Part shown: one piece after another, positions 2,271 through 30,814 of the stretch
Numbering within the stretch: the first letter of the stretch is position 1
Layout of the letters: each line of letters starts with the position of its first letter
Assembly (NCBI GenBank): GCA_965231145.1
Contig: OZ246420.1
Coordinates: 810,001 to 842,000, forward strand
Direction: 5' to 3'
DNA from: Candidatus Saccharimonadota bacterium
GTDB taxonomy: Bacteria; Patescibacteriota; Gracilibacteria; Absconditabacterales; Absconditicoccaceae
Length of the DNA stretch: 32,000 nucleotides
Notes under the pieces: generated by a model
Database searches by the model: none
What the model was told of the DNA's origin: nothing
The model's input: the letters and a program-made list of their open reading frames with translations, nothing else
Position numbers and translations under genes: made by a program

Positions 2271-4193
2271 TTAGATACCCGTATCTTCACCCTGTTCTTC
2301 AAGCGTCATACCAACGATAGCTTCTTCTTCAGAAAGCGCATCGAGTCTGCTTTCGTCTTTTACCGCATCACGGTTAATATAGACGAACATAGGCATAATC
2401 ATCGGAACACGTCCGATGTTTTTTTCGATAAACTCACCGAGTTCATCTTTCATAGACTTGAGGATCATCTTCACATCGTTTGTCTGCTTGAGGTGATGGT
2501 AGTACCTCTTCTTTGCAAACTCTACGATGTCGGTATGGATCTTCTGTACTTCTGATGAGTAAACGAATCCACGAGACTCAATCTGGATATTTCCAACTAG
2601 TTCTTTCGTCTTTGTATCTACCTTGAAGATAAGAGCAAGTACTCCGTCCTGAGACATGATCTTACGAGCTTTGATAACGTACTCACCAGAAAGGTGACCC
2701 ATACCAAGTCCGTCAATCATAACCACATCAAGTTTCATCTGGTTTTTTCCAAGGATCACTTTGTCGTCATACATTTCAATCACGCTACCGTTCTTTTCAG
2801 GCATAAGGATCTTATCGTCTGGTATACCCATATCAAGACCGAGAGATCTGTGTGAGTATCTTTCTGCCGCTGGCATGTAAAATGGAAGGAAGTATTCAGG
2901 CTTCACAAGACCAAGCATGATCTTATGATCTTCTGCTCCTCCGTGTCCGCTGGCATGTACGTCCATTGCGTCATTTGTCACAAGATTGATTCTCTTGATA
3001 ACGAGATCGTTAATCATCTTTGCAAACTGTGACTCATTTCCTGGGATCGTACTTGCTGACATCACTACAGTGTCACCAGGTCTGAGTTCAAAATGCGTAT
3101 GCTCTCCTCTTGCGATACGAGCAAGCGCTGAAAACTCTTCACCTTGTGCTCCTGTTGAAAGAAGTACTACTCTTTCATCTGGAAGCGTATCTATCTCATT
3201 TGCATTTGTTAATTTACGAACGAGACCCTTTGGAAACTGGATATATCCAAGTTGCTGACAAATTTCTACGTTATTGATCATAGATCTTCCTGAAAGGAAA
3301 ACAACTTTGTTGTGTTTTACCGCGCTCTGGATGATCTGGATAATACGTCCGACATTTGATGCGAACGTTGCAATCACCATTCTTGATTTTGTTGATCTGA
3401 TGATATTATCGATAGTCTCTCCTACTCTCTTTTCAGAAATAGCGAAACCAGGTTTATTTGCACCAAGTGAGTCTCCGATATAGAGCTTTACTCCTTCAGT
3501 ACCGATACGCGCAATCTTTGAAAGATCTGCTGGCTTATCGATAGCAGGCGTGTGGTCGATCTTGAAGTCTGATGAGTTGAAGATCAATCCCTTTGGAGTA
3601 TGGATAGCCATAGCCATCGTCTCAGGGATGTTATGGTTCACATGAACATATTCGATAGTGAAACATCCAAGTTTGACGATATCTTTATTTGGGTCAACGA
3701 TCTTTGCCTTGATTCTTCCAAGTTGTTTTGGATCTTCAAATGTTTTCTTGACGATACCGAGAGTGAGTGGTGTCGTATAGATCATAGGAAAATCAAGAGC
3801 TGGCAAGATATGACGAAGTGCTCCTACGTGGTCAAGATGGCCGTGTGAAAGGAGAATTCCTCTTATCTTATGCTGATTCTTTTTGAGATATGAAATATCC
3901 GGGATGATATAATCAGCTCCAAGAGTTTCCTCTGCAGCAAATTCCATACCCGCATCGATGATGATGATATCATCTTTATATTCGATGAATACACACTGCC
4001 CTACCTGTTCAAGACCAAGGAGTGATCCGATTCTTACAGGTATTTCTCCGGTATATACCGGTGGATCATATGACACTTCTGCCTTTGGTTTCCTTACGAA
4101 ACCACCTGTTCTTGGACGAGGCGCTGGTCTTTTAGGATTGTTTTTTTTGTCAAAATCAATATGCACATTTGTAGAAATAGTAGATTCTTCCAT
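2271..4193 (-). CDS. rnj: Ribonuclease J (metallo-beta-lactamase/beta-CASP RNase)
   Basis: Intact 640-aa ORF. It shows the MBL motif LSHGHLDHVG and beta-CASP-like middle and C-terminal regions, plus a basic N-terminal extension. Stop is TAA. Confidence 0.88.
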   Translation of the reverse strand: MEESTISTNVHIDFDKKNNPKRPAPRPRTGGFVRKPKAEVSYDPPVYTGEIPVRIGSLLGLEQVGQCVFIEYKDDIIIIDAGMEFAAEETLGADYIIPDISYLKKNQHKIRGILLSHGHLDHVGALRHILPALDFPMIYTTPLTLGIVKKTFEDPKQLGRIKAKIVDPNKDIVKLGCFTIEYVHVNHNIPETMAMAIHTPKGLIFNSSDFKIDHTPAIDKPADLSKIARIGTEGVKLYIGDSLGANKPGFAISEKRVGETIDNIIRSTKSRMVIATFASNVGRIIQIIQSAVKHNKVVFLSGRSMINNVEICQQLGYIQFPKGLVRKLTNANEIDTLPDERVVLLSTGAQGEEFSALARIARGEHTHFELRPGDTVVMSASTIPGNESQFAKMINDLVIKRINLVTNDAMDVHASGHGGAEDHKIMLGLVKPEYFLPFYMPAAERYSHRSLGLDMGIPDDKILMPEKNGSVIEMYDDKVILGKNQMKLDVVMIDGLGMGHLSGEYVIKARKIMSQDGVLALIFKVDTKTKELVGNIQIESRGFVYSSEVQKIHTDIVEFAKKRYYHHLKQTNDVKMILKSMKDELGEFIEKNIGRVPMIMPMFVYINRDAVKDESRLDALSEEEAIVGMTLEEQGEDTGI

Positions 4194-6280: not shown

Positions 6281-6805
6281 TTATTTGAAGAAGTTAGGAT
6301 TGATCAGTTGTAATATCGCTCCTGAAGCGCCGAGTATAGCTAGTCAGATTGCGACTTTCACAATCTTTGCTTTACCTTCTTTTGGATTTCCCGACGCCCA
6401 CTGTACGCCACCAATAATGATGAACATAAATGAAACTATCAGGATTGCTGTGACTACCATTTTTGAGAGTCCTCCTATGAGAGCCGGAAATGCATTATCG
6501 GCGTCGTCTTTCTTTATACATTTACCGATAAATGGGACATCTGTATTTAACTTAATTCCCTCTTTACACTCATCATCAGAGCCGCCATTTTCATCTCATC
6601 CACCATCCGATGGTTTAGGATCTGGGGTTCCTTGTGTCACATTCATGTCTGGGGTAAATCCTCCATCTGTGCTAAATCCATCAGCATCTGTCTGCGCTGC
6701 ATATGCTACACTACTTACATGTAATGTCTGGGACGATAAGAGAACTGGAGCCGAATAGACTATCGCTATCAACGGCAACAGAAACCATGAAATCCTTTTT
6801 TTCAT
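6281..6805 (-). CDS. Secreted small membrane protein, TrbC/VirB2-type (T4SS-pilin-like) family
   Basis: Track fragment 6596..6805 continues through TGA codons at 6596 and 6344 to TAA at 6281. It has a signal peptide (MKKRISWFLLPLIAIVYSAP), an acidic Gly/Asp linker, and then two hydrophobic helices (ALIGGLSKMVVTAILIVSFMFIIIGGVQWASGNPKEGKAKIVKVAIGLAILGASGAILQLINPNFFK). This layout is typical of VirB2/TrbC-like pilins. Confidence 0.7.
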
Positions 6806-7753: not shown

Positions 7754-8872
7754 CTATTTCGTCTTTTTAGCAGGAGCTGCTTTTGTCGTCTTGAGCTGGT
7801 AGATACCCTTATCAACTCTTTCAAACATATCTTTATACTTCTGAAGGTTAAGAAGGACGGTGTTTGGGCTTACCATCTTTTCCTTAAGAAGTTCTTTTGA
7901 GATCTCTTTTACGCTCATAGCTCTTTCATTTTTCTTGAGGATTCTGTAGATGATGTCTTTTACGACTCCGCCTTCGATACCCCACTCTCTGAGTCCATAG
8001 ATACCAAGTCCCATATTTACAAATGTCTGATTGTTTTTTACAAGTTCATTATGAACTGTTGTTACCTTAATAGCTTTAGCTGGGAACCACTCTATGATCT
8101 TTGAAGGAATTTCCTGGAAGTGCATAGGCTTATTCACTTTTCTGAGTACATACATGATTTTCAACTTAATAGTCTTTGGATGTACATCGTGGAAGTCCTG
8201 GAGCCCAAGCTTTCCATCGAACATCTTCGCTCCTCTAATAACATTGAAGAAGTTAGTGTAGAAAAGCGTATTTGTAAGATAATGTATACTTGGATTTTTT
8301 ACCTGAAACTCAGCTTTAAGTTTTTCAATAAACTCATAAATATCTTCTGACTCTTTTCTCTTTTCAAAGTAGTTATTTACGAAAAGCGTCATCTTAGTAA
8401 GCAAGTCTTCGAAAAGCGGATCCTTATAGAAAGCTTTGTAGAGAAGTTTATTTCTTTTGAGATAGTTGATATCGAAATCTGAAACAAGAATAAGTTTAAG
8501 TTCCTGGGGTGTAAATTTGAAAATACCTTTGTTCACCATCTTCTTGATCATATCTTCTTCTGACAGGAGACCTCCAGATACATCAAGGATCTTCTTTGCT
8601 TCTTCAAGCACCTTAACGTATTTATCATTGCCTACGATGAGTCTTCTAAATCTCATGAGGGCCTGAGTTTCTATCTGTCTTACACGCTCTCTTGTCATGT
8701 TATAGTCTTGCCCGATTCTCTGGAGAGGAATTTCTTTACTCGTGAGGAGACCAAACTTCTTGCAAAGCACAAGTTGTTCTTTTGGCTTGCAGTACTGTAG
8801 AATATCTTTGATGTTAGTACTTTCGATATCTACTTTAATTTTTTTGTCATCCATCTTTATGTTGAAATTCAT
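7754..8872 (-). CDS. Sigma-70 region-4 HTH protein with C-terminal HARE-HTH-like domains
   Basis: Intact 372-aa ORF. The N-terminal LTSKEIPLQRIGQDYNMTRERVRQIETQALMRFRR is a sigma-70 region 4.2 signature. The C-terminal half has two HARE-HTH-like segments (PMHFQEI...GLGIYGLREWG and MSVKEISKELL...FERVDKGIYQLK). No region 2 is visible, so it is probably not a canonical sigma factor. Confidence 0.75.
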   Translation of the reverse strand: MNFNIKMDDKKIKVDIESTNIKDILQYCKPKEQLVLCKKFGLLTSKEIPLQRIGQDYNMTRERVRQIETQALMRFRRLIVGNDKYVKVLEEAKKILDVSGGLLSEEDMIKKMVNKGIFKFTPQELKLILVSDFDINYLKRNKLLYKAFYKDPLFEDLLTKMTLFVNNYFEKRKESEDIYEFIEKLKAEFQVKNPSIHYLTNTLFYTNFFNVIRGAKMFDGKLGLQDFHDVHPKTIKLKIMYVLRKVNKPMHFQEIPSKIIEWFPAKAIKVTTVHNELVKNNQTFVNMGLGIYGLREWGIEGGVVKDIIYRILKKNERAMSVKEISKELLKEKMVSPNTVLLNLQKYKDMFERVDKGIYQLKTTKAAPAKKTK

Positions 8873-11365: not shown

Positions 11366-13261
11366 CTATCTTTCAAAATTTAAGTGATAGGTTCTTCCAT
11401 CGGGAGTTCCATTATCTATTTTAATAGGATGGTCAGCAGCATAAGCTTTATATTGTTGGAGAAGCTGAGCGGGAGAGATATTACGACCACGGGCACCCGC
11501 TTGAATACGAAGGTATGGCTCAGCGATAGTCATATATGCTTTATATGCATGCATATGCGGATCTATTTCTGTCGGGGTAAATGTGAGTATCGTATCTACT
11601 GATAATGGTCTACCTCCAAGTTTTGCTCTCACTACATTTGTTGTAGTTCACGCGTTTGCAGCAATCGACTCTATAGTATCACCCGGAACTACTACATAGC
11701 GCATAGGATATATATTTGGCAGATTCCATAACGTCTCAAGATACGTTTGTATGTCACGAGTAAGATGTTCACGGATAAATGTCTGAGCTTCAGCAGCCTT
11801 AGCATGAATACCCTTTGGCAAGTGTTCTGGATAAGGGATACTTACTAAGGGACGTCCCATAGTTTCTGGTCTTGCAGAAGGAATGTCTATAATACGAGTA
11901 GATGTTTCAATAGTCGTTTGTGGTCTTACTTCTACGCTCGATCTTGGGGTATATGTATCTTCCGATCTTTGTGGCGGTGCCACATCTGGAAGAAGTGGTC
12001 CTACATAACTACGGATATATGCTTGCAACAGTTGACCACCCTTCAAAGTAGGATCAAGCGTGATGCGCTGATCATAACCATCAACTGCTTTTTGTGCGTC
12101 TGCTACTTTTTGTTCCCATATAGCTTTTTGTTTCGTCCATATAGCTACCTTTTCAGGGCGAGCCGCTCAACGAACTTCAGCTTGATCACCTACGGCTGGT
12201 TTCAATAATTTTCCATTTGTTGCTTCATCGAGGCTTTTTTCCACACGTGCAAGCTCTGCTTTTGCAGCATTGAGAGCTTTCTTATCTCCGTCAAAAGTAT
12301 GAAGACCCTTATCTTCTTCACGCCTTGCTTCGATCAAAAGTGTATTGATAGCGTTAGGATCTTCTTTCTGAATTAAGCTTAACAAAGATTGTGCTCTTGC
12401 CATCTCATTTCTCTTATAGTCATTTGTCCCTGATGACGCTTTTGCTTCATCGAGGATACTGTTCGCTTCCTTAAGAAACTTCTTCGCAACATATGCATAG
12501 ACAGGATTTTCAGCCTGTCCCGCTTTCATATCATATTTTGCAGCTTGCGCAGCAGCTCCCCTATAAAATCTCATAGCCTGGAGCCAGTCTCACTGAGCAA
12601 ACATAGCGTCACCAGCTTTTTGAAGCTTATCTGATGGCTCATCAAGCATGATCTCCTGCTCGTTTGCGGCTTCTTTCTTTTGCTTTTCATCGTTTTGCCA
12701 TTCTGGAGAAAGATATCTTGTGAGTCTTTCAAGGGTCTTCTGGTCAAGTTTTCCTGTTACTGGAAGTCATTTTTCCTGTTGAAAAGATTTGACCATGTTT
12801 TCAGTCTCACCTCCTACACGCATGACACCGTCTACTTTCGTAGTTTTTCCTGCTCTATTGAGCGCAATCTGTACAGGCAAGACGATAGAAGCATCATTCA
12901 TGTTCAATGTTGCCATTTGTCTGCCACCCTGCATCTCAGCAATCACAGTATCCATCCTTCTGTTCATCTGTTCGAGGGTGATCTTTCCTGTGATCGCATT
13001 ACCGTATTCAAGAGAAAGGTTGTGTATTTTTTCATTGTGCTGATCAATAATGTTGCGACGTAGATCCGTCAGTTCGCGTCTCGTATTTCTTGTCACTTCC
13101 GCCTGCTCTCTCGCCATCTTTGTTTCCATATCAGAAAATTTTGCCTCCAACTCAGCTCTATCTGCACGATCGGGAATATATGCATCCAAAATCTGTTGGT
13201 TGGCTCTCCTATTGGTGATATCGACTCTGATATCTTTGTTTTCCGGACCTTTATAACCCAT
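11366..13261 (-). CDS. 631-aa protein with a PG_binding_1-like domain and a C-terminal LysM-like domain
   Basis: Four track fragments (12767..13297, 12167..12574, 11648..12046, 11366..11632) share one frame and join across TGA with no TAA or TAG. I checked this codon by codon. LPVQIALNRAGKTTKVDGVMRVGGETENMVKSFQQEKG(TGA)LPVTGKLDQKTLERL fits the peptidoglycan-binding repeat. YVVVPGDTIESIAANAG is LysM-like. ATG at 13261, with TAG upstream at 13298. Stop is TAG at 11366. No signal peptide is evident. Confidence 0.8.
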
Positions 13262-16791: not shown

Positions 16792-18144
16792 ATGAAGCAA
16801 TTGTCAATGTGAATAGTAGTATGTGCAATGGCGCTTTTCTCCTATACTTATGCAGCACAAACAAGCATCTCTTTTACCATACTTCCTCTGCCAGGAAGCG
16901 GAGACATAACACCACCACCGGTTACTGGAGAGATCATCACTGGAGGTACTATGAGCGGAGGCAATAATATCCCTCTGCAATTTGCAGGCGGACGCAATAT
17001 TTCCAATGGACGAGGAAATACAATCAGCGGATTTGTCCTGTGAAGCGCACCAGACACATGAGATCTACAAGAAATGGACACAGTGACGCTTATCGAATGG
17101 GGAAAACATTATGGCCTCATAAGCGGAGAAAGCGAACTTCCTCAAACCATTAGCAGGCTAGATCTTGCAAGACTACTCACTCTTTTTGTACAAAATGTTT
17201 GGTCTATTGGTATCCATGACAACCCACGCTGTGATATGACGAAATATCAAGACTATCATACTATAACTCCTGAAGAGAGACAGTATGTTCAAGCTGCATG
17301 TAATCTGTGACTGATGGGCCGAAATGGCACAAGAACAGGCTTAACTATGAAATTTAATCCTCATCAGATCGTCACCAGAGATCAACTGGCTACTATCTTT
17401 TCAAGGCTGCTCTACGGAAATGCTTATGATAATAAATCCGCGGACAAGTGGTACGAATGACATATGCGCATCATGCTTTCTGAAGGGTTTATCACCAAAC
17501 CAAACCCATCTATCATAGAGAGCACGAGTAATATCCTTACCATCCTCAGGAGAATCGCAAGGGCCATACCAAATGGAACTATTATGATCAATACATCGGC
17601 TGCGACTCCAAGGACAGGAGATGAATTACAGAAAGCATATGATCGGGCGAAAGAACATCAGATAACTCCGCTCCCTTCTTATGATACATGAGTACTCTAT
17701 AAAGAACTTTCAAGAGGCGATCTGGCGCACATGCTTACTATGTTTTCAAAAAACATCCTCGGGAAGATAAGTATCTGAACAGATGCGTGTACGATAGAGA
17801 ACTATAGTGATTTTACAGGAATGTCTGCAAATCTCAGCGCAGACATAAAAGAAGTGTGCAATCTTTGACTGATGGGCAGAACTGGAAGTGGCAGCATGCT
17901 AGCGGCCTTTAGGCCATATGATATCGTCATAAGGGCAGAACTTGGCGCGGTGCTCTCAAGAATGCTCTATGGCAACACCTACGACCATGTAGCTGAAGGG
18001 AAAGCATGGTATGAGGAGCATTTACATGCACTCTTGATCGCAGGATACCTCACTAAAATAGATACTCCTCTCATGACAGAGCGCTATGGATATGTGCTTA
18101 TCATTCTACAAAGAATGGCAAAAAAATTACAGCCTTCTTTATAG
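16792..18144 (+). CDS. Secreted protein with two SLH (S-layer homology)-like domains
   Basis: Four track fragments (16828, 17074, 17464, 17872) are in one frame and join across at least nine TGA codons. Signal peptide is MKQLSMG(TGA)IVVCAMALFSYTYAAQ. Two paralogous ~95-aa units are present: ...QYVQAACNLG(TGA)LMGRNGTRTGLTMKFNPHQIVTRDQLATIFSRLLYGNAYD and ...IKEVCNLG(TGA)LMGRTGSGSMLAAFRPYDIVIRAELGAVLSRMLYGNTYD. Stop is TAG at 18142. Confidence 0.75.
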
Positions 18145-18581
18145 GTGATTTTTCGCAATAAACCCTTAACTATCGGGTATTTTTCCCCTTCAACATTTGA
18201 CAGAATGGCTGAACAGAGCAAAAAGCTAATGAGTGTCTTCTTACTACGTGAGACGTCATTTGCCGGGATCAACGGTCGGTGTTACTTCGAGGCGATGAGT
18301 GTTATTTTCGCAAAAAATATAAACTACATATCACATACCCATGCTTTCTTGAGAAAATAATCATCTAAAACAAGGTACATACCATACTTTCAAACAAAAA
18401 TCTTTTTCTCATATAACAAACGTATATACGGACAAATATTTACAAGCAAAAATCCCTCAAAAATACGATCAGAGAGATATTTTAGCCTAAAATCTCCCCG
18501 TTTTTTTGACAATTTCTCAAATATGTATAAAATGATATAGTAAGAAAAAGTATATCGTATTTACATGATATTGTTACTTCT

Positions 18582-19181
18582 ATGAGTAAAGCAATCAGGA
18601 AAGTGCCAAGAATAATGATAGTGATGATATCAGCATTATTTTTGACATGTACCAATCCTTCGTTTACCGGCGCCAGTTCATCAAACGTTATCGTGAGTCT
18701 TCCTATCTCAGCAGGAACGGTGACTATATCAGCACCTGCTTCATTCGGATTTTCATCTATAAGTGTGGCGTTTGATGCTCAGCTTATTACCAATGACTTT
18801 ACGGGAACAGATAATCGTTTTATCATAAGCGACCTTAAAGGACATGATTCTGGATATACCACGACTCTCCAATTAACTGGAGACCTCGTATCTACAGGAG
18901 GGAGTTCTATCTCTTCAGGAAACGTCTATTTTAGATCTCTCGGTCCTACAGGATTTCTTTTGAGTGGTACTGCTAACCCTAGAGTTATCATAGACTCAGC
19001 AGCTACAGGCGGATACCAGCCTCTTAACAATACAAGAAATTTTATTTATAGAGATGAAGCACTCAATACAGGTGTACTCAGTGCATACTACCAAAATATC
19101 TCTATGCAAATATCGGTACCAGCATCTCAAGCAGCAGGTAACTATGTAGGAACTTTGGTCTATACACTTATCGAAAACTAA
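18582..19181 (+). CDS. Small secreted WxL-domain-like surface protein
   Basis: Intact 199-aa ORF with a signal peptide. The C-terminus ...AAGNYVGTLVYTLIEN* resembles the WxL-domain terminal motif (Y.G.L.W.L). The last ~115 aa align with the C-terminus of the giant protein at 20516..20860. Confidence 0.7.
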   Translation: MSKAIRKVPRIMIVMISALFLTCTNPSFTGASSSNVIVSLPISAGTVTISAPASFGFSSISVAFDAQLITNDFTGTDNRFIISDLKGHDSGYTTTLQLTGDLVSTGGSSISSGNVYFRSLGPTGFLLSGTANPRVIIDSAATGGYQPLNNTRNFIYRDEALNTGVLSAYYQNISMQISVPASQAAGNYVGTLVYTLIEN

Positions 19182-19198
19182 TCAATATTTCTTTCTCT

Positions 19199-19234
19199 AA
19201 AAAAAAGACTCTCAATTATGAGGTCTTTTTTTTC
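19199..19234. terminator. Bidirectional rho-independent terminator between convergent genes
   Basis: A-run, then AGAC(T)CTCA-ATTA-TGAGGTCT, then T-run. It serves 18582..19181 (+) and 19216..20424 (-), whose TAA lies in the hairpin loop. Confidence 0.75.
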
Positions 19235-20424
19235 ACACTTTTACGAGGAGCGGTAGTCTTTTTTGCAGCGTTCTTCTTTGGAACTGTAGTCTTTTTTACC
19301 ACAGAGGCTTCTATTGGCTTTGAGCTTGAAGAAGCCGCTACTCTCTTTTTTACTACTGTAGAGCGTTTTTGAGGGGGGATGGCTATATTCTCATCATGCT
19401 GTGTTGTTTGCGTCTTACGTCTTCTTTTACGCTTCACGATAACAATGAGAAAGATGATCATCAGGATCAAGAGCGCTCATGCAGCAACAATATATTGCCA
19501 TGGAACAAGAAAGAATTGATCACGATAGACAATCTGCTTCCATTCCTGACCTTCAACATTAGTAAGAGAATGAGGCTGATGTAATACAAGTACTTCTGCT
19601 TTTACAAAAAGATGATATCGGGGAATGCTATTGATCTCATCTGTAATAGTGCTTGTTTTCGCATAGAGCTGAGCCGGATTACTTTCTTCATCCCACGTAA
19701 CAAGTCCAAAGAAACTAGAAAAATGCATATGTATCTTATAGTCTTCATCATCAAATCCATCATTTTTAATTCAAACGAGCGTCTTTAAGATGCGAGTAGG
19801 TTTATTATAAAATATCTTTACTTTATCATCTCCTCCCACTTCTTTCCCATACAATGCAAACGCTGTTACATCTTTTGCTCCCAATTCACTCAATGGTACT
19901 AAGAAAAAATTACTTTGTACTTCTCCTGGCACGACAATATCAATCAAATTTGCTTTACGAGTTACAATCGCCATAGGCGTATTGGGATCACGCGCTACTC
20001 CATCAACTACAGAATATGTTATGCAACCATGCAGGATACCGGCAAAGCCTGAAAGCTTTGTAAATGAAGCATATTTTGTCACTGTTTCTCCTCACTGCAA
20101 TGTTATGATATTCTCTCCGGACAAACCTACTGACTGTCCAAAAAATCCATTGTTCGATGTCTTACATGCTTGAACAGGTCTATCGCCATGGCTAAACTCC
20201 CCTTCTACAAAAGACAAGACCACAGAACTAGGAGATGTACCTTTATTGGTAATCAGCATACATATAGCATCCGCTTGAAATCATGTATCTATAGTTAACT
20301 CCAGACGGTTCAACCCATTACAGAAATTCAAATCTACTATGCCCACATCCTGTGCAGCCATGCACGCTCCTCCCAGGAGCCCAACTAAAAAAAGAAAAAA
20401 TATTTTTTTGATATTTTTTTTCAT
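19216..20424 (-). CDS. Surface protein with signal peptide, C-terminal TM anchor and Lys-rich tail (CscA/DUF916-like architecture)
   Basis: Three track fragments (19771..20082, 19477..19728, 19216..19470) plus an untracked N-terminus are in one frame across TGA codons; I checked codon by codon and found no TAA or TAG. N-terminus is MKKNIKKIFFLFLVGLLGGACMAAQD. C-terminus is ...WQYIVAAGALLILMIIFLIVIVKRKRRRK followed by a K/T/A-rich tail. The family assignment rests on architecture and gene context only. Confidence 0.75.
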
Positions 20425-20515
20425 ATAAAAAAGCTATACAGTGAGTAAAATACTCTTCCTATATAGCTATGTATATTATAAATACAACTCTAAAGCGAAA
20501 TGTTTGCCACACTTT

Positions 20516-23500
20516 TTAGTTCTCAATCAGTGTATATACCAGTGTTCACTGATACTGACCAATTGGCTGCTCGGCAGGAAGCGCCACTTGCATCCAGATA
20601 TATGCTCCATAAACACCCATCACACTACTATTTGCAGCGGTATCACGAAGAATAAAGTTGGTTGCATGATCAAGAGGTTGATAACTCAGTGCAGCAGTAT
20701 CTATTTCTACTCTTGGATTTGCCGATCATGCGATGGTATCGACCTCGGTAGCACTTGACTTGAAGTAGACATTTGAAGCAGAGATAGTACTCGATCCAGA
20801 AGTGAGATTTCCATCTAACTGTAGTGTCGTTGTATATCACGCATCAGCTCATACTCCGTCTGCAACCTTAAAGTATTTCGTTTCATCATTGCTAAAGTTT
20901 TGTTCAAATGTTTGTACATTGAAGGCAGGCCTCCAGAGCCCAGTGAATAAGAGCGATGCTGGCGCTGCCATCGAAAGAGTAGTTGGAAGGATATCTATAG
21001 TAAATACCCCCGTAAGTGTATGTCCTGCACTATCCATCGTTTGAATACATACTCTTGCTGACGTTTCTATTGCATACTGGAAGTAATAATTTGTCAGTAG
21101 TTCATCGTCAGAAATTGTAAACTTATCATTGTCCAATGTTCACGCACATGTCGTATCAAACGTATACGTAAATGAACTGTCTTCAGCGTCAGTAGTAGTA
21201 AATGTTCCGACTGAGGCTCCTGTTGTAAGCTTTTCATTCATCGTCAAAGGAGTTAACGCAAGATCAGTAGGTGGTGTGTTATTTCCTTGGTATGCAAATG
21301 TCATATATAAGTCATCCTGAGCTGGTATGACAAACTGCCATGTGTCACCAACGAGAGTTCCTGTGTGATTTTGTGTCATAGAAGACATCAGCATATCTCC
21401 CCCCGTGCGTACAGCCATATACAATGTACTTCCTGTCAATGGAGCTATACTTCCTGAATCGATAGTAATAGTAATGAAATCGATATCGTTATTTCTTTCC
21501 TGGAAGTACCATGTACGTTCTATTCTCTTATATCATGTCGTAATATTATCAGTAACCCAGTTACCTGTGGACTCACCATCATTTGCCCATACAAGCAACG
21601 CATTGTTTGCAAAGCTACCACCTGTAAATTCTACAATGATATCGCTTCTACTATTTTCTGATCTTGATTTTTGCTGTAAGAGGGATGAACTATCATGACG
21701 GCCGATACCAGCGATGTCACGATTATATGCTCATCCACTTGCCGCACTCCATGCAATAATATCTCACGTTAATATATAATCTACTGGCGCTACCGTCTGA
21801 TCAATCGTGATACCATATTTCAACGCAAGATATGAGTTCATCATATTCATTTCTGTATCTGAGAGTCTGCGTTCAAACGTGATGATCTCCGCGATATCAC
21901 CACTAAATGCTCCTCTTGCTGTTGTACAGTTCGAATTTCCAATAAGCAACCCTGCTCCTGTCTGACTTCACATATTAAGAGCTCATCTCCAAGCCGTTCC
22001 ACCAGTATTACCAGAACCCTGAAGTCCAAGCGTCTGTCCAAATCCTGTTCCGTAGTTCCACGAAGCAAGTGTTGCTGCATTATTGTTCACTGATACTGTA
22101 GATAACACTCTTTGCCCCGAGAGTAATGTCATCAGACGTCATCCACTCAACATCAGTCACCTATCACACAGTGTCGGATTGACATCAGTTGTATTACCAA
22201 CTACTGTGAGCACTCATGTATTATAACTATTACGGAATACTGTGAACTGTGTTGCATCCTGTCCATTCATCTGTTTTGCCATAAACAAATAATCTCACGA
22301 CAAGAAACGCACAACAGGATTAAAGTTCATTGCACCAGTGATATATATCGGTATAAGCGACTGATTATTTTGTACTCCGCTCACTCCGTTGTACACAGTC
22401 TGACTCAACCATCATGATACTCATGCTCATGCTGCAGAGAGCACAATACCTGTATCTGCTCTCAACCATGTTGAACATCCTCAAAATCATCCACATACTG
22501 AAGGTGCTAAACCTATACGCGCAAAACGCTGTTTACTTACTGACCAAGGCGATGAGATAGATCCAAAACTCGTAAACGCTCCTCCAATATCTACTGATCG
22601 ACCATCAGAAATCATAGCATATACTCCAGATTGAGCATAGACATCGAAGGTCGTGTCTACCTTTCCGCCTGAACTTAAGCGCGCAAAATTCCATCTTGCA
22701 ACGCCTTGTACCGATGTGAACACTCCTCACACAAGTATAGATCCATCTGTTTGATCAATCAATATGGTTTTTACGACACCATTGATATTTGGATCAAATG
22801 TCGTATCTAGCAATCCTGTGGATGAGACACGGGCAATACGGTTTCTCACTGCTCCTCATACTGTCGTAAATGCTCATCCCATAACAATCGATCCATCTGA
22901 CTGCACAGCAATAGCTTCAACACCATTGTTTGCATTTGCTCCAGTAAATGTTGGATCTAGCAATCCTGTGGATGTTACACGCGCGATACTCGTTCTGATT
23001 TGTCAACCTACTGTAGTAAATCTTCCTCCTACTAATATATTTCCATCTGGCTGCAACGCAAGTCCACTCACAGAACCGGTAGAATTGAAAAGTCCGGTAA
23101 AAGCAGTATCTAACTCTCCTGTCGATGTCAGACGAGCAATTCCTCTCAGGGCAACACCATTTACACTTGAGAACGATCATCCTGCAATAATTTTATCTCA
23201 CTGTTCTAAGAGTGCACTCACATTTGCATTCATAAATAAACCAGTAAATTCCGGATCAAGCTGACCAGTTGCCGTGAGACGAGCGATATAATTTCTCGAA
23301 ATTACCGTACCCGACATACGATCAAATTCTCATCACACTATAAATCCTCAGTTGCTCTGTGCTATAACAGCGTTTACCTGTGCATTTGGATATGGATGAA
23401 AATCCTGGTCTACGAGCCCTGTTGCAGTAAGACGAGCAAGGTTGTATCTTACAGAAGCAACTATCTGAACATATGATCCTCCTATAACTATCCCCCCTTT

Positions 23501-26500
23501 CTTATCTAACGCGAGAGCATAGACTGGTCATCAGAAAACATGCGGCACAACTTCATCTACGACACCCAATGGTACAAATGGCTGGATAAAAAACGTATAG
23601 AGTCATGTAAGATATAAACCACCACTATCTGTTGTTCTTAAGCATACATTTGCTATATGATCGCTCATATCTTGGAAATAATAATTGGTGAGAAGCTGCT
23701 CACCTGTTATCGTAAATTTACTATTGTCTAACGATCCTGCACAGGTAGTATCAAAAGAATACGTAAATATACTATCTTCCTCATTTGGATCTTGTGTACT
23801 CAAGAGAGCTGCAACAGATCCGATCGGAAGCTTTTCTTTTATCGCCAATGTAGATGTCTGTAAAGCATATGGTCTATGATTTCCATTGAGATATCCAAAT
23901 GTAATAGTGGTATCATCTTCAGGATTTAGTGCAAATACCCATCTGTTTCCATCCATAAGAACTCCAGTGTAAACCTGAGTACCATCTCATGTAAATGAAT
24001 TATCTCCTGAGCTTACAAACATATATAAAGTACCATCACCGAAGTTCTGAAGTGCTCCTGAATAATAAGAAATTTCTACTGTTCATACATCTCCATTTCT
24101 TTCCTGAAAACGCCATGTACGCGGAGTTCTGAGATAACCATCAATAATAGTTCATGTAACCAAAAACCCCGCAGTAGTTTGACCATCATTAGCCCAAACT
24201 AAAGTTTCATTGTTCGCAAAAGAACCTGTCGATTCAACTATGATATCAAATCTATCATTTGCAGATTGAGATTTCATCTGATACAAAGAGGAAGTGTCAT
24301 GACGCCCGATACCGGCGATATCATGATTGTATGCTCCACCACTTGCCGCACTCCATGCAATAATATCTCATGTTAATATATAATCTACCGGTGCCGCTGT
24401 CTGATCAATCGTGATACCATATTTCAGTGCAAGGTACGAGTTCATCATATTCATCTCAGTGTTCGTGAGGCTACGTTCAAACGTGATGATCTCTGCGATA
24501 TCACCACTAAATGCTCCTCTTGCTGTTGTACAGTTCGAATTTCCAATAAGCAACCCATCACCTGTAAGAGCTCCCATCGTCAATAATGATCTCCAAGCGG
24601 TACCACCAGTATTACCAGAACCCTGAAGCCCAAGCGTTTGTCCAAATCATGTTCCGTAGTTCCATGAAGCAAGCGTCGCTGCATTATTATTCACTGATAC
24701 TGTAGATAACACTCTTTGACCCGAGAGCAATGTCATGAGACGACCACCACTCAGCATCAATCACCTATCACAGAGAGTTGGTGAAGCGTCATTACTGTTA
24801 CTTACGAGAGTCAGCACTCATGTATTATAACTATTACGGAATACGGTAAATTGTGTTGCGTCCTGGCCATTCATCTGTTTTGCCATAAACAGATGTGTAC
24901 CGCTTATAAAACGCACAACAGGATTAAAGTTCATAGCCCCAGTTACATATGTTGGCATAAGCGACTGAGTGTTTTGTACTCCACTTACTCCGTTATACGC
25001 AGCCTGACTTAACCATCATGATACTCATGCTCATACTGCAGAGAGCACAATACCTGTATCTGCTCTCAACCATGTTGAACATCCTCAAAATCATCCACAT
25101 GTGGATGGAGCAATTCCGACACGCGCAAGACGCTGCTTAGGATAAATCCATGCACCATCACCCGCGATGTTAATCTGCGTAAATATTCCACCAATATCTA
25201 TAGACCAGCCATTTGCTACCATGGCCCATATACGATTGTTTACATATACATCGAAAGTTGTATCAAGATTTCCTGAATAGTCTACGTGTGCAAGATTTGC
25301 TCTTGCCGCACCCTTCACACTTGAAAAGAGACCTCACACATAGAGACTTCCATCTGGGGCGCGAACAATAGAGCTTACCGCGGAACCAGCAATATTGAGA
25401 TTTAAACTATCAATAAGTCCCGTAGAAGAAAAACGAGCAACAAAATTTCTTGCAGTAGCGGCAATACTTGTAAAAGCACCACCAAATAAGATAGATCCAT
25501 CTGGCTCAAGCAACACGGTATTCACTATAGCATTGGCTACAACACCAGTACTAAAATCTGGATCGAGAAGTCATGTTGAGGTAACACGCGCAATGTTATT
25601 TCTCGTAACTCCACCCACTGTGGTAAATGTTCCAACAAAAATAATTTTTCCATCTGGCTGGACCACCATGCCACTTACTGTACCTACTACACTTAGATTT
25701 GGGTTGAATCCAGAGTCAACCAAGCCTGTATGACTTACACGCGCCATATGATTTCTTGTCAATCATCCAACCGTCGTAAATGCACCTCCGATAACGATGC
25801 TTCCGTCTGGTTGTTCCGCTATAGCTCCTATAGTTCCATTTGCAACTACATTAAATGAAGGGTCTACCTCACCTGTTACCGTAAGACGGGCTATGTAAGT
25901 TTTTGATGTTCATCCAACAGTAGTAAATGCTCATGCGATGAGTATACCACTATTTGCCTGAACAATAATCGAATTGACTTGTCCATTTGCATTTGGATCA
26001 AAAGTACTATCTATTAGTCCCGTAGAACTCAAGCGAGCAATACGATTTCTTGCTACTCCTCACACATCAGTAAATGTCCCGCCTAAAAGTAATGAACCAT
26101 CGAATTGAGTTGCAAGAGCAAGAACTGCTCATGCCGGCACTGAAGTATATCAGGTGTCGACTATACCTACGGGTATAAATGGATCGATAGCAAAAGTAAA
26201 AAATCCTGTTGCATACAATCCCCCACTATCTGTTGACCTGACACATATATTTGCAAGATGCTGAGTCATATCCTGGAAATAATAGTTTGTATAGATCTGA
26301 GAACCAATAATAGTAAATTTATCATTATCGAGCGTTCATGCGCATCCTCATGTATCAAATGCATAGGTAAATACGGTATCTTCTTGATTCGGATCAAGAC
26401 TCGTCAGATTTGCAACAAATGATCCAAATGGCACTTGTTCCTTTATGATACCACTTGAAACACGAATGTCATAAGGAGGTTGTCCCTCTTTCAGATAACC

Positions 26501-29500
26501 AAAAGTAATGACAGTGTTATCTGTCGGATTAAATGAAAACTTCCACATATCATCATCAAGCGTTCACGTATACACTTCTACGTCTGATCATGTAAGTAAG
26601 CCTCCGCCTGATGCAACAAACATGATAAGCTTCCCTGTTCCAAACGTTGGGATAGCGCCAGAGTAATATGACAATTCTATATTTCCAACATCTCCTTGTT
26701 TTTCCTGAAAATGCCATACACGCGCTATACTTAAGTAGCCCGACACAGCAAGACCCGTCACAAGTGATCATGTTACTCACCCCTGATGAGCCCAAACAAG
26801 TCCCTGATTATTTCAAAATCCTCCCGTCGAATAGATTGAAATTTCTCCAGAGTTATTTGTAGATTTGGAACGATTTTGATAAAGTCCCATAACATCACTA
26901 CGAGCAATACCAGCTATATCAAAACTATAGATACCACCACTCGCGGCGCTCCATAAGGTAATAGTAGTATTTCCTGATCTTACCACATAATCAGTAGGAA
27001 CTGTCTGATCAAGTGCAATACCATATTTTAATCCAAGATAACTTCATACTACTAACTCCTCTCCTGTTGTAAGGGCGCGTGAAAAACTCATAATCTCAGC
27101 TATATCACCACTATATGAAGCTCCGGAAAGACACCCAATAGGAGCTCTTCCTATTTGGAGATTCACTTCTGCGACTTGAGTTGGTCTTTGTGTTGTACCA
27201 AATCCATCTGCTTTTCACTGTACAGAGAGTGTCTGTATTCTTCAACTACCATATTTCCGTCAAAGTATTTTTGGAATAGAATCATTGATAATACCAGTAG
27301 AAAATCTACGTTCTGTTCCTAGATACGTAGTAAATTTACCTCCACTCATCATAAAAGATCTATCGCATGATATCGATGTCAATGGGACTCAAACGGATGT
27401 AACAGTCAATGTTCCACTCGCTGCACGACTACGCATAACGACATATTGAGTCCGGTCCAAGTCAGTAAAATTTATTGGCATAACAAATGCAGATCCTGAA
27501 CCATCAAAACTTATTGATGGATTATAATTCATACCTCCTGTAATAAACTGTGGTTGCCATGATCCTGTTGGCTGTCCCGCTACCCCATCCTGTCATGCTT
27601 GCGTTGTCCACCCTGACACACCATTTCCCCCACCAAACTCAATACCAGCATCTGCTTTTAACCATAATGCACATCATGTTAACCCCAGACAAGTTGATGG
27701 TAAAATTCCAACACGCGCAAAACGAGTTTTAGAAACTCAATCCACAACAGTAAAGGTACCTCAAAGGAAAACTGCGTTTTGTAGAGAATCTACAGTAAGA
27801 GCCGTAATCGTTGCATTAAAAAGAGGCACAAATGTTGTATCAAGAGTCCCATCAGGAAAAAATATAACGACACGTCATACATTTTGACTATTTGCTATAT
27901 TAAATGCTCCTGCAACCATGATTCTTCCATCATTGAGAACCTTAATAGCATTTACCGCTCCATTTACCGTACCAGAGAAAGTTGTATCTAACAAACCCGT
28001 AGATGTAGTACGAGCAAGAAAACTTCTCGCTCCTCATACCACATTGGTCAAGTTTCCTCCTATAATAATTTTTCCATCTGACTGTACGTCTATAGCAAGT
28101 ACTCCACTCGAATTCCCTGTAAAACTTCTATCAATATAACCGGTTGCATCAACACGAACTATACCTGTCATAGGAACTCATGATACGGTTGTGAATATTC
28201 CTCCAATCAATGTTTTCCCATCCGATTGTATTTTAATAGCATTTACCGAGTTATTCAAATTTCATGTAAAAGTGGAATCCAGAAATCCAGAAGAAGTAAT
28301 ACGTCATACACGATTTCTAGTCTGACCATTTATCGTCGTAAATGTCCCACCTATGATCATATTTCCATCCGACTGGATATCGATTGCATTGATGATATTA
28401 TTTGTGTTTCCCGTAAATTGTCAGCCCGTTAAAAGAAGTCACGTTGCTGTTACTTTTGCAATACGAAGTATAGCCATATTTGCACCTCCTGTAGTGAATG
28501 ACCCTGCAATAACGAGACCATCATCACTAGTACGAACCATAGCATTGACACTATTGTTCATATTTGGATCAAAGATCGTATCTACGCTACCGGTAGCTGT
28601 AATACGTGCTATACGATTTCTTGCTAGTCCACTTGCTGAAGTAAAGGTACCCCCAACAATTATTCCACCATCCGGCTCAACAACCATAGTAGATATGGTA
28701 TTGTTAAATGCCGGATTGAAAGCAATGCTGATCGTACCAACGGTAAATTCTGATGCACCACACGTATAAAATACCGCCTGATGATCTTTCACCACGACAA
28801 TTACATCTCATGAAAAGTCTGCATTACCATTTTCATCACAGCTTGTTTCTGCACTAGCAGAAAGTCACGACATATTAAATCATGTATCTCCATGATGTTT
28901 CACCTGTAATTGTACTACTTCGCCATCTGCAAGTTCAGGCAGAGAGATTGTCATCTGTACGGGCTTTGTAAAAACGAGATGCTGATCTGCAAATCAAAAC
29001 GTATATACTTTTTCTATCTTTTCTGATTCATCCAATCCTTCTACATCCTTCACTGGATGTTCCTGGATAAGTATTTCTTCACTTTCAAGTGGTGCCTGAC
29101 CCTCCATAGGATCAATCTCAGGAACAATGGTTTCTGCTACTATACTCTCTGTTGAATTCTCAAGAGAGCTGATAAGTGAGCTCTCAGGGATAAACTGCTC
29201 GGTACTAATTTCTGTGTTTTGCTCACCAGAAACTGTCTCATTTGCTGTCACCACTTCCTCAACAACAGGAGCTTCTCCTATTACTTTTTCTTCTTCTGTT
29301 ACAGGAGCAAATATTTTTGTATCTTCAGGAATAACTATCGTCACTCCTGCATCCTCACCTGTCACTATCGTTCTTTCTGCAAATTGAATCTCTCTTATTT
29401 TCAAGTCAGTATCTTTCTTAAATTTCGCGCTTACGGCTGTTTCATCGATCATCAGCTCACCCTCCTGTAACCAGATCATATCTTTTGGCAAAAATGGTTC

Positions 29501-29968
29501 TGTTACAATTTTTTCTATATCTTCAATAACGGGAAGGATATGTGGGACTCCGCTTGCAATTATATTTTGCTCAGCAATAGTCTCTTCCTGTACAATCACG
29601 CTCTGTTCTCCTGCAATCTCATCTTGGTCGTTTCCAGAACTAATAATTTCTCCTGAAAACACATTATCTCATCATCCTATCTCATCAGCACTTGTTTCTA
29701 CTATTTCTACTCACTCTTCTATCATAACGTCTTCTCCTTCTCACTCACTCTGTTCATCTACTTGTACAGAGTCTATTTCACCCTCACTCACCACTGGCGT
29801 TACCGTTTCTTCCTGCACCACGGGTGCAACCTCTTCGTCGGCAGATGCAATCCGGTGTGTCTGACCAAATGAAAACACAAAAAGACAAATCCAGATGGCT
29901 GGCTTTCTCAAGTATGCAAATGGCTTTGGTGCTTTCTTTTGGATCGCAATATTCTTCACAACGAACAT
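20516..29968 (-). CDS. Giant (3,150 aa) modular cell-surface protein: signal/TM, acidic region, 3x[beta-propeller delta-60/DUF5122-type repeats, LamG, cadherin-like], C-terminal WxL-like domain
   Basis: All 13 minus-strand track fragments from 20849 to 29968 share one frame. I read every in-frame triplet in all gaps between them and found only TGA, with no TAA or TAG, until TAA at 20516-20518. ATG at 29968 gives MFVVKNIAIQKKAPKPFAYLRKPAIWICLFVFSFG (signal/anchor). Repeats such as GGAFTTVGGVTRNNIARVTSTGLLDPDF fit the propeller type. The LamG hallmark is AFSGDIAEIITFERRLSDTEMNMMNSYLALKYGITIDQ. The cadherin-like motif is FTY.FDTTCAG.LDN.KFTI.G..LLTNYYFQ. The tail ends ...GQYQGTLVYTLIEN*. Confidence 0.88.
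20850..28800 (-). repeat. Three tandem intragenic modules of about 2.6 kb inside the giant gene
   Basis: Landmarks recur at offsets of about 2598-2604 nt. The FTY.FDT motif starts at about 21160, 23761 and 26359. The LamG ends are at 21764 and 24368. The PS.C..F/L..C..WL.AD.G junctions are at 22487, 25091 and about 27690. The two C-terminal copies are near-identical at the DNA level in the LamG block. For example, 22441-22496 equals 25045-25100 over 56 nt, and 21764-21950 versus 24368-24555 differ only at scattered positions. Confidence 0.85.
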
Positions 29969-30145: not shown

Positions 30146-30814
30146 TTATAATATTTGCTGCACTTCAAGCTCTTTATTGATGAACTCATAAAGCGAAGCG
30201 GGTCTATGGGTAACCCCCACCTCTGTTTTGTCTGTTTGTCTGATCAAATGTAGACTTTGTATTTTCTTTCTAAAATTCCTCACATCTAGGCTTTGTCCAA
30301 GGATGACCTCATAGACATTTTGCAGTTGCTTCAGTGAAAAATACTTTGGCAGAAAGTACTGTGCAGCATTTGTAGATTCAAGTTTTGATCTAAGTCTTTG
30401 ATAAGCATATCTGATGATTTCCAGATGATCAAATGCAAGAGACGGAAGCTCTTTGATGGAAAAATACTGCGACTTTGTAGCATCGCTTCCTGCTGTCGTT
30501 TTACTATGTATCTCATGACAGATAGCCATGTATGCTGTTGTGATCACTCTACCTCTGGGATCTCTATGAGGATTTGAAAATGTATAAAGTTGTTCCAGAT
30601 AGACGTTTGTTACTCATGCTTCTTCACGAAGTCTTCTTCTCGCTGCTTTTTCCAGCGACTCATCTTCGAGCACAAACCCTCATGGCAGAGCCCGATAGCC
30701 TTTATATGGAGCTCCTCCTCTTTCGATAAGAAGCAGCTGCAGCGTATTATCTGTAATCGTAAAGATCACATTATCCGTTGCCACTAAGATAGACTGGATA
30801 ATTTTGTCTCCCAT
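30146..30814 (-). CDS. nrtR: Nudix hydrolase fused to an NrtR-type winged-helix domain (NrtR-like regulator)
   Basis: Track fragment 30146..30547 extends upstream through three TGA codons to ATG at 30814. The Nudix box is LPG(TGA)GFVLEDESLEKAARRRLREEAG(TGA)V. The C-terminal YFLPKYFSLKQLQNVYEVILGQSLDVRNFRKKIQSLHLIRQT...THRPASLYEF is the NrtR wHTH signature. Stop is TAA. Confidence 0.8.

Follow-up and report, generated by a model that had tools for sequence, protein, structure and literature searches.

A probable, highly diverged WxL/WxLIP surface-protein cluster with a giant propeller protein in a TGA-recoded bacterium of the Gracilibacteria/Absconditabacteria group

The DNA analysed here (the window) is a stretch of 32,000 nt from contig OZ246420.1 (GCA_965231145.1; positions 810,001–842,000 of the forward strand), and it carries three consecutive genes that encode a small secreted protein, a membrane anchor and a giant secreted protein. 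We consider it likely that this locus is a highly diverged surface-protein cluster of the WxL/WxLIP (Csc) type, present in a Candidate Phyla Radiation (CPR) bacterium that belongs to the Gracilibacteria/Absconditabacteria group. The small and giant proteins share a C-terminal domain that matches the WxL domain of Firmicutes at the profile level, the anchor matches the WxLIP family that accompanies WxL proteins, and the arrangement of the three genes is conserved in related genomes.

Recognition of the genes depends on the genetic code. With the standard bacterial code the region is fragmented, while reading TGA as a sense codon yields a single 9.6-kb open reading frame on the minus strand. When the internal repeats of the giant protein were aligned with one another, TGA faced Gly 49 times and Trp once. 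Because TGA pairs with Gly and not with Trp between these repeats, the organism is assigned by sequence to code 25 (TGA = Gly), as the original prediction had assumed; code 4 (TGA = Trp) was rejected on the same count. Given this reading of TGA, all three genes are as previously described: a small secreted WxL-like protein (18582..19181, plus strand; 199 aa, no in-frame TGA), a WxLIP-like (DUF916/DUF3324-like) type I membrane anchor (19216..20424, minus strand; 402 aa, four TGA) and a giant secreted WxL-like protein (20516..29968, minus strand; 3150 aa, 84 TGA). These would be the equivalents of CscB (small WxL), CscA and CscC (large WxL), respectively. The start of the anchor gene and the stop of the giant gene lie 91 nt apart on one strand, the spacing given previously, and the small gene is convergent with the anchor gene, with 34 nt between them.

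The C-terminal domain shared by the small and giant proteins

A BLASTP comparison of the small protein with the C-terminus of the giant protein gave 76 identities over 165 residues (46%, E 2e-43), and by this measure the two are paralogs. A domain common to both had been predicted with an extent of ~115 aa; the relationship was borne out, while the extent proved to be ~165 aa, covering residues ~35–199 of the small protein (18684..19178, plus strand) and ~2986–3150 of the giant (20519..21013, minus strand), with 37–199 and 2988–3150 as the narrower bounds. The domain hence constitutes the entire mature small protein, which consists of a predicted signal peptide (an N-terminal Lys/Arg region followed by the hydrophobic stretch IMIVMISALFL) and this single domain. 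Both translations end in the same decapeptide, GTLVYTLIEN, as had been observed earlier. In the small protein the candidate motifs are D84-x-K86-G87-x3-G91-Y92-T-T and Y194-T-L196, located 102 residues apart; the corresponding spacing in the giant is 100. We rejected the possibility that the small protein is a lipoprotein (LFLTC), because its homologs do not retain the Cys and the box is not a proper match.

To relate this domain to known WxL proteins, both individual sequences and family profiles were compared. Direct searches with the Pfam WxL model (PF13731) aligned the two domains in the correct register, with 15.2 bits (E 0.022) for the small protein and 15.1 bits (E 0.024) for the C-terminus of the giant. 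A word-index search identified nine relatives, and one of these, P0002 (57% identical to the window protein, E 1.2e-57), matched PF13731 with 38.7 bits (cut-off 25; E 1.4e-9) over profile positions 42–210 of 214. Overall, PF13731 matched 5 of the 15 aligned members of the window family, and a few family members are already tagged as WxL by Pfam annotation. For reference, metagenome contigs were scanned for DNA encoding the WxLIP motif NQ[I/V]DKxxxYFDLK, which provided Firmicutes-type clusters with 11 WxLIP proteins (PF06030 and PF11797 in 11/11) and 11 small WxL proteins (PF13731 in 11/11). Alignment by hhalign of the 15-member window-family profile with the 11 verified small WxL proteins gave a probability of 87.2% (E 3.8e-6), whereas cross-family and reversed-sequence controls gave probabilities of at most 9.3% (E ≥0.0035).

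In the register of this alignment, D84 falls on the D of the first motif of Firmicutes small WxL proteins, K86 on its R, G87 and G91 on its two G and Y92 on its W; in the second motif, Y188, Y194 and L196 occupy the places of Y, W and L. The sequence context of WxL motifs has been described as a hydrophobic residue (W1-10), Asp (W1-8), Arg (W1-6), a turn with Gly on either side, and hydrophobic residues at W1+4 and W2-2, and Hassan and Williamson assigned structural roles to these residues (PMC9772566). This context is retained in the window family as I82, D84, K86 (Lys for Arg), G87...G91, L96 and L192; among the 15 family sequences D84 is invariant, and K86, G87 and G91 are each at least 90% conserved. 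The WxL-like domain is positioned at the extreme C-terminus of Sec-exported proteins, and the small proteins are composed of a signal peptide and the domain only. With regard to motif spacing, Firmicutes WxL domains fall into a small type (~106) and a large type (~68) (PMC9772566); our references showed 96–120 in small proteins and 83–84 in the three large ones. In the present lineage the spacing is 99–102 in small and large proteins alike, and separate small-type and large-type domains were not found. Thus, where the large WxL proteins of Firmicutes carry a large-type domain, the giant protein carries a small-type one, as evidenced by its spacing of 100 and its 46% identity to the small protein. 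A lineage without a separate large-type domain bears on the evolution of this module.

Based on the profile match and on P0002 exceeding the Pfam cut-off, we conclude that the shared domain is a WxL domain, as predicted by its sequence, in which Tyr has replaced both signature Trp residues and Thr the first Leu. The proposal that it belongs to the WxL family, made at the outset from the terminal motif, therefore stands at the level of profiles.

The membrane anchor and its relation to WxLIP

WxLIP proteins are ~337–365 aa in length and comprise a signal peptide, two β-sandwich domains and a C-terminal transmembrane helix (PMC10599100). The anchor follows the same plan, according to its hydropathy and to the structural model of a homolog, and its length of 402 aa is due to a 65-aa Lys-rich tail. 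At its N-terminus is a signal peptide, after which come a first PGBD/DUF916-like domain (19915..20352, minus strand; aa ~25–170) with the family-invariant residues C35, C55, C87 and C134, and a second, HBD/DUF3324-like β-sandwich (19510..19914, minus strand; aa ~171–305), for which the support is at the family level. A hydrophobic helix at aa ~313–335 (hydropathy peak at aa 303–335) is followed by a tail that is predicted from its composition to be cytoplasmic (19219..19488, minus strand, for helix and tail together). The signal peptide, the C-terminal membrane segment and the DUF916-type plan had all been anticipated. The tail itself (19219..19419, minus strand; aa 336–402) is rich in Lys, Thr and Pro, with 17 Lys and Arg against 3 Asp and Glu, and resembles histone H1; its length varies widely among orthologs.

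The wider anchor family was collected by searching a profile of 12 database homologs against 1.84 billion representatives. This search returned 453 proteins (clusters at 50% identity) at E ≤1e-3, 245 of them at E ≤1e-10, most with a length of 320–420 aa. Among 89 scanned relatives, PF06030 (WxLIP_PGBD, formerly DUF916) matched 17, with a best E-value of 3.5e-5; PF11797 matched none, and no other non-trivial Pfam family recurred. A NCBIfam scan of the anchor returned nothing relevant. By hhalign, the profile of the 89-sequence family (A6) aligned with that of the 11 verified WxLIP proteins (A7) at a probability of 98.3% (E 1.4e-14, 219 columns), and the alignment extended through both extracellular domains, up to residue 281 of the homolog P0011 and position 277 of WxLIP, with the signal peptide and transmembrane helix outside it. 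A narrower profile of seven orthologs, including the window anchor (A2), aligned with A7 at 86.9% (E 4.2e-6), placing aa 42–165 on WxLIP positions 51–178; this is the DUF916 part only, and domain 2 was not reached. We conclude that the anchor is, on these profile comparisons, a remote WxLIP homolog, the first domain being well supported and the second at the family level only. Of the relationship to DUF916/DUF3324 that was originally proposed, the DUF916 part is thus upheld by both profiles, and the DUF3324 part is tentative, with support from the broad one only.

Many of these relatives are mistranslated in the databases. Proteins of these families in Logan and at JGI are translated with TGA as Trp, so that a conserved Gly is wrongly shown as Trp (FVDG, for instance, is given as FVDW). 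Anchor-family members in databases have a median of 3.7% Trp, a value which indicates that most of them come from TGA-recoded genomes and were translated with code 4.

The structure was modelled on P0011, which is 45–49% identical to the window anchor; its sequence is a database translation with Trp at TGA positions, and this lowers the quality of the model. The AlphaFold model (pLDDT 66) displayed two β-sandwiches and a long C-terminal helix. When it was compared by Foldseek with 350,542 PDB chains, the first three ranks were taken by 9i25_C, 9i1y_B and 9i1y_A (E 8.7e-9 to 1.4e-8), which are the WxLIP of Enterococcus faecium, alone (9i1y) and bound to a long WxL protein (9i25). These solved structures of the E. 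faecium WxL loci A–C, released on 2026-01-28, head the structural matches of the anchor-homolog model, with 6–8% identity over the aligned structures. They demonstrate directly that WxLIP and a WxL domain form a complex, the mechanism proposed here.

The same search raises an alternative, namely a fibre- or pilus-like assembly in which donor-strand exchange would join the small proteins into a polymer, the anchor would form the base in the manner of a chaperone, and the giant protein would be the adhesin at the tip. After WxLIP, the matches are dominated by chaperone-usher chaperones (Caf1M, FimC, CfaA and CsuC; E ~1e-6), and the small protein has a weak FimA match (E 0.019). Loci contain between one and three small genes in tandem, and WxLIP has been proposed to bind and stabilise WxL domains through an inserted β-hairpin strand (PMC10599100), much as Caf1M, FimC and CfaA use a tandem immunoglobulin (Ig)-like fold to bind a partner β-sandwich by strand insertion. 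However, the WxLIP structures rank above the chaperones, the FimA match (15.7 bits) is far under its cut-off of 30, neither an usher nor a sortase gene was found in the window, and the Firmicutes WxL system is not known to form fibres. The chaperones are, moreover, periplasmic and soluble, belong to diderm, usher-dependent systems and have no sequence relationship to the anchor, so that we regard them as analogues only and a fibre as very unlikely.

For the WxL/WxLIP assignment itself, a number of results weigh on the other side. Both window domains score below the PF13731 cut-off of 25 bits. The two Trp-x-Leu motifs are absent, the aligned residues being Y92-T-T and Y194-T-L; Tyr takes the place of each signature Trp and Thr that of the Leu in motif 1, with the aromatic character retained at the Trp positions (Y92 in 15/15 family sequences; at the motif-2 position Tyr in 13/15 and Phe in 2/15). 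In the aligned segment of the anchor family NQIDKxxxYFDLK was not found, and the family has instead F-C-N and four conserved cysteines in domain 1. The window anchor gave no Pfam match of any kind, with neither PF06030 nor PF11797 matching it (E ≤1) or seven orthologs (E ≤10), and the DUF3324 homology appears with the broad family profile only. Searches of PDB sequences with the profiles of both families matched no WxL or WxLIP chains, those of E. faecium included. The Foldseek result for the anchor came with TM-scores of 0.25–0.37 and a model pLDDT of 66, and many other tandem-Ig proteins were within 10- to 100-fold of WxLIP. For the small protein, an all-β AlphaFold2 model (pLDDT 70) retrieved no WxL chain from the PDB, and GH123 enzymes gave its best match, through their N-terminal sandwich (E 9e-4); we left this result aside, as the model is of mediocre quality and the PDB seems to contain a long-type WxL only. 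Finally, no LPxTG (CscD) partner adjoins the trio in the window, where the neighbours are a weakly SLH-like secreted protein and an NrtR-like regulator.

The sub-threshold or absent direct matches, the missing Trp residues and NQIDK...YFDLK motif, the lack of sequence matches to PDB WxLIP or WxL chains and the fold search with the small protein would all fit an explanation without true homology, in which lineage-specific β-sandwiches resemble WxL and WxLIP through convergence or composition. What makes this extremely unlikely in our judgement is that two independent families each match their own Firmicutes counterpart and not the other, while the reversed-sequence controls were negative. In addition, P0002 exceeds the curated Pfam cut-off, the motif context residues and spacing agree, and the cluster architecture is identical to the Firmicutes plan.

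Conservation of the locus and comparison with known clusters

The window's own sequence is also present in three Logan assemblies. Independent loci were obtained from Logan by way of the anchor (L004) and by way of the small protein (L005), from genome contigs (L006–L010) and through distant anchors (L078–L081), and TGA is a sense codon in all of them. All ten anchor-bearing loci pair the anchor with a WxL-like gene, and L008 contains a small WxL-like gene only; wherever the WxL-like gene lies downstream of the anchor, it is convergent on it. The full trio, made up of the anchor, its small genes (between one and three) and a large protein with the domain at its end, was found in L004, L005, L006, L009, L010 and L079 in the convergent layout of the window, so that the three-gene arrangement is conserved in six loci of related TGA-recoded genomes besides the window, which favours the original prediction. 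The remaining four (L007, L078, L080 and L081) have the anchor and a WxL-like gene, L078 and L080 without a large partner. The size of the large partner ranges from ~430 aa (L009) through ~1330 aa (L005, L006 and L010) to 3150 aa in the window, where a unit of ~855 aa has been triplicated. At NCBI these proteins are named "hypothetical". One of the loci, L010 (CAYOFF010000005.1), is from a metagenome-assembled genome labelled "Candidatus Peribacteria", yet TGA is sense in its anchor and WxL-like genes; either the taxonomic label of this bin or its assumed genetic code may be wrong.

Csc clusters are known from Lactobacillales, Listeria and Enterococcus, and encode CscA (WxLIP), CscB (small WxL), CscC (large WxL) and CscD (LPxTG) (PMC1534035; PMC9772566; PMC10599100). 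The window, with WxL-like, WxLIP-like and WxL-like genes in succession, agrees with the published definition of a WxL cluster (PMC10599100). Both systems share a minimal trio of a membrane-anchored protein with two Ig-like domains, a small protein and a large protein with the C-terminal domain; Sec export of all three; profile-level homology of both families; the motif context and small-type spacing; and a large partner that varies in size and passenger. They differ in phylum and genetic code (here CPR, with TGA = Gly) and in the motifs, which are W-x-L twice in Csc proteins and Y-x-T and Y-x-L here. The anchor, unlike Firmicutes WxLIP, has four invariant cysteines, lacks NQIDKxxxYFDLK and carries a 65-aa tail, where Firmicutes tails are short. 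The passenger here consists of DUF5122 propellers and is 3–6 times longer than the 500–1000 aa typical of Firmicutes. Another distinction is that the small gene here always converges on the anchor when it lies downstream of it. A further difference is the CscD partner, which is missing beside the trio. An LPxTG-anchored CscD is frequent in Csc clusters but not obligatory.

The original prediction held that such a complex had not been described outside Firmicutes. This needs to be narrowed, since ~9% of Pfam WxL sequences are already outside Firmicutes (PMC9772566) and two lone DUF916 proteins have been listed in CPR, TM7x_00820 (329 aa) and Kazan VE98_C0001G0381 (476 aa) (Table S5 of PMC10599100). 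Like the anchor family, these two CPR proteins have DUF916 similarity, and they show that this fold also occurs outside Firmicutes. They are matched by the DUF916 hidden Markov model, which misses the window anchor; no WxL partner or cluster label is listed for them, whereas the anchor family is paired in every anchor locus. The part of the claim that stands concerns the cluster: a literature search yielded no paper that connects WxL with Gracilibacteria or Patescibacteria and none describing a CPR cluster. The locus is a variant of the known WxL/WxLIP system, not a new kind of system. It extends that system beyond low-GC Gram-positive bacteria, and it indicates that the eponymous Trp is replaceable by Tyr.

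The setting of these loci invites another reading, in which the anchor and the small protein would form a core envelope or structural layer, that is, a constitutive coat or wall-tethering scaffold, and the large partner would be one of several cargoes, so that attachment to another cell would not be the system's main role. In every sampled lineage the locus is surrounded by housekeeping genes (YchF, an FeS-assembly protein, DnaK, trigger factor, YbaB and an EngA-like GTPase). The breadth of the anchor family (453 clusters at 50% identity) and the two loci that pair the anchor with a small protein in the absence of a large partner are in keeping with such a layer, as is the gene directly upstream of the cluster (16792..18144, plus strand). 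Its secreted product, 450 aa in length, contains two internal repeats and has a borderline S-layer-homology (SLH) match of 20.4 bits, and a 36%-identical ortholog occupies the same place in L005. That score, however, falls short of the cut-off (20.8 bits), and the adjacency was seen in close relatives only, not in more distant loci. Furthermore, the propeller or repeat passengers vary greatly by lineage and are threefold expanded in the window, which is typical of adhesins under diversifying pressure, and the large WxL proteins of Firmicutes as well as WxlA are adhesins (PMC9772566; PMC13522541). We therefore judge an envelope layer to be unlikely.

The giant protein, a proposed assembly and the neighbouring genes

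The giant protein is composed of a signal peptide, an acidic N-terminal region, three tandem units of ~855 aa (21014..28726, minus strand; aa ~415–1270, 1270–2135 and 2135–2985; 42–61% identical to one another) and the C-terminal WxL-like domain. Each unit contains one DUF5122 β-propeller and ~530 aa of unannotated β-rich modules; Pfam DUF5122 matched with 16 repeats (E 1.4e-129). Searches of Pfam, PDB and NCBIfam with the inter-propeller modules and the N-terminal region gave nothing significant, and a resemblance to LamG-like or cadherin-like modules, suggested by eye, is therefore not claimed.

In the WxL/WxLIP reading, which we favour, the predicted signal peptides would direct all three products through Sec. 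The anchor would be held in the membrane by its C-terminal helix in a type I orientation, with the Lys-rich tail in the cytoplasm and the two Ig-like domains presented outside. The analogy with Firmicutes suggests that the DUF916-like domain would grip the WxL-like domains of the small and giant proteins, giving a physical complex of the kind seen with WxLIP and a long WxL (9i25). Those domains, again by analogy, may sit non-covalently on the cell wall, a property that PMC9772566 attributes, in citing it, to Brinster 2007. The three propeller units, ~2570 aa in total, would then project outward from the cell. Adhesive passengers characterise the large WxL proteins of Firmicutes (PMC9772566), and WxlA mediates adhesion (PMC13522541); on this precedent the giant protein would most likely serve as an adhesin toward a host or prey cell of a presumably episymbiotic organism. 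Another cell's surface is suggested as the target because episymbiotic or predatory lifestyles have been reported for these lineages; of all the steps in this scheme, that one has the weakest support.

A life attached to other cells is assumed for Gracilibacteria and Absconditabacteria, and the proteins that make contact are largely unannotated, in part because databases mistranslate their genes. A known and experimentally tractable architecture is now assigned to at least 453 protein clusters and to giant partners, and the anchor, the putative wall-binding domain and the putative adhesin are concrete candidates for the attachment apparatus. A broader conjecture, which we hold to be possible but doubtful, is that WxL/WxLIP, far from being peculiar to Firmicutes, might be an ancient monoderm wall-tethering device shared with CPR, and that the conserved code-25 locus, with Tyr in place of Trp and stabilised by Cys, might be the main platform on which giant propeller adhesins are displayed for attachment to host or prey.

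As for the sequences flanking the three genes, a 437-nt non-coding gap (18145..18581) upstream of the small gene has no Rfam match, and no Rfam match was found across the window. A candidate sigma-70-like promoter, TTGACA-16-TAAAAT (11/12), at 18506..18533 on the plus strand, precedes the small gene by ~50 nt. The case for it is limited to its location and to how well it matches, promoter-like sites across this region being no more frequent than expected from shuffled sequence. A search between the convergent small and anchor genes turned up no intrinsic terminator. On the other side of the cluster, 177 nt upstream of the giant gene, is an NrtR-like regulator (30146..30814, minus strand; Nudix plus NrtR winged helix, E 1.9e-22); this adjacency is not conserved in L005, where DnaK is the neighbouring gene.

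Three further genes in the window, all on the minus strand, encode proteins with domain matches. The first (11366..13261) specifies a 631-aa protein without an obvious signal peptide, in which PG_binding_1 (E 3.7e-11) is accompanied by a partial LysM domain and which may be a wall-binding or wall-lytic factor. The second (6281..6805) specifies a 174-aa protein with a signal peptide and a weak, below-cut-off TrbC/VirB2 match (E 0.0084) in its hydrophobic C-terminal half, and may be a type IV secretion pilin. The third (7754..8872) specifies a 372-aa protein that combines sigma-70 region 4 (E 3e-9) with HARE-HTH (E 1e-7), an unusual architecture for a regulator, and this protein is conserved at the corresponding place in L005.

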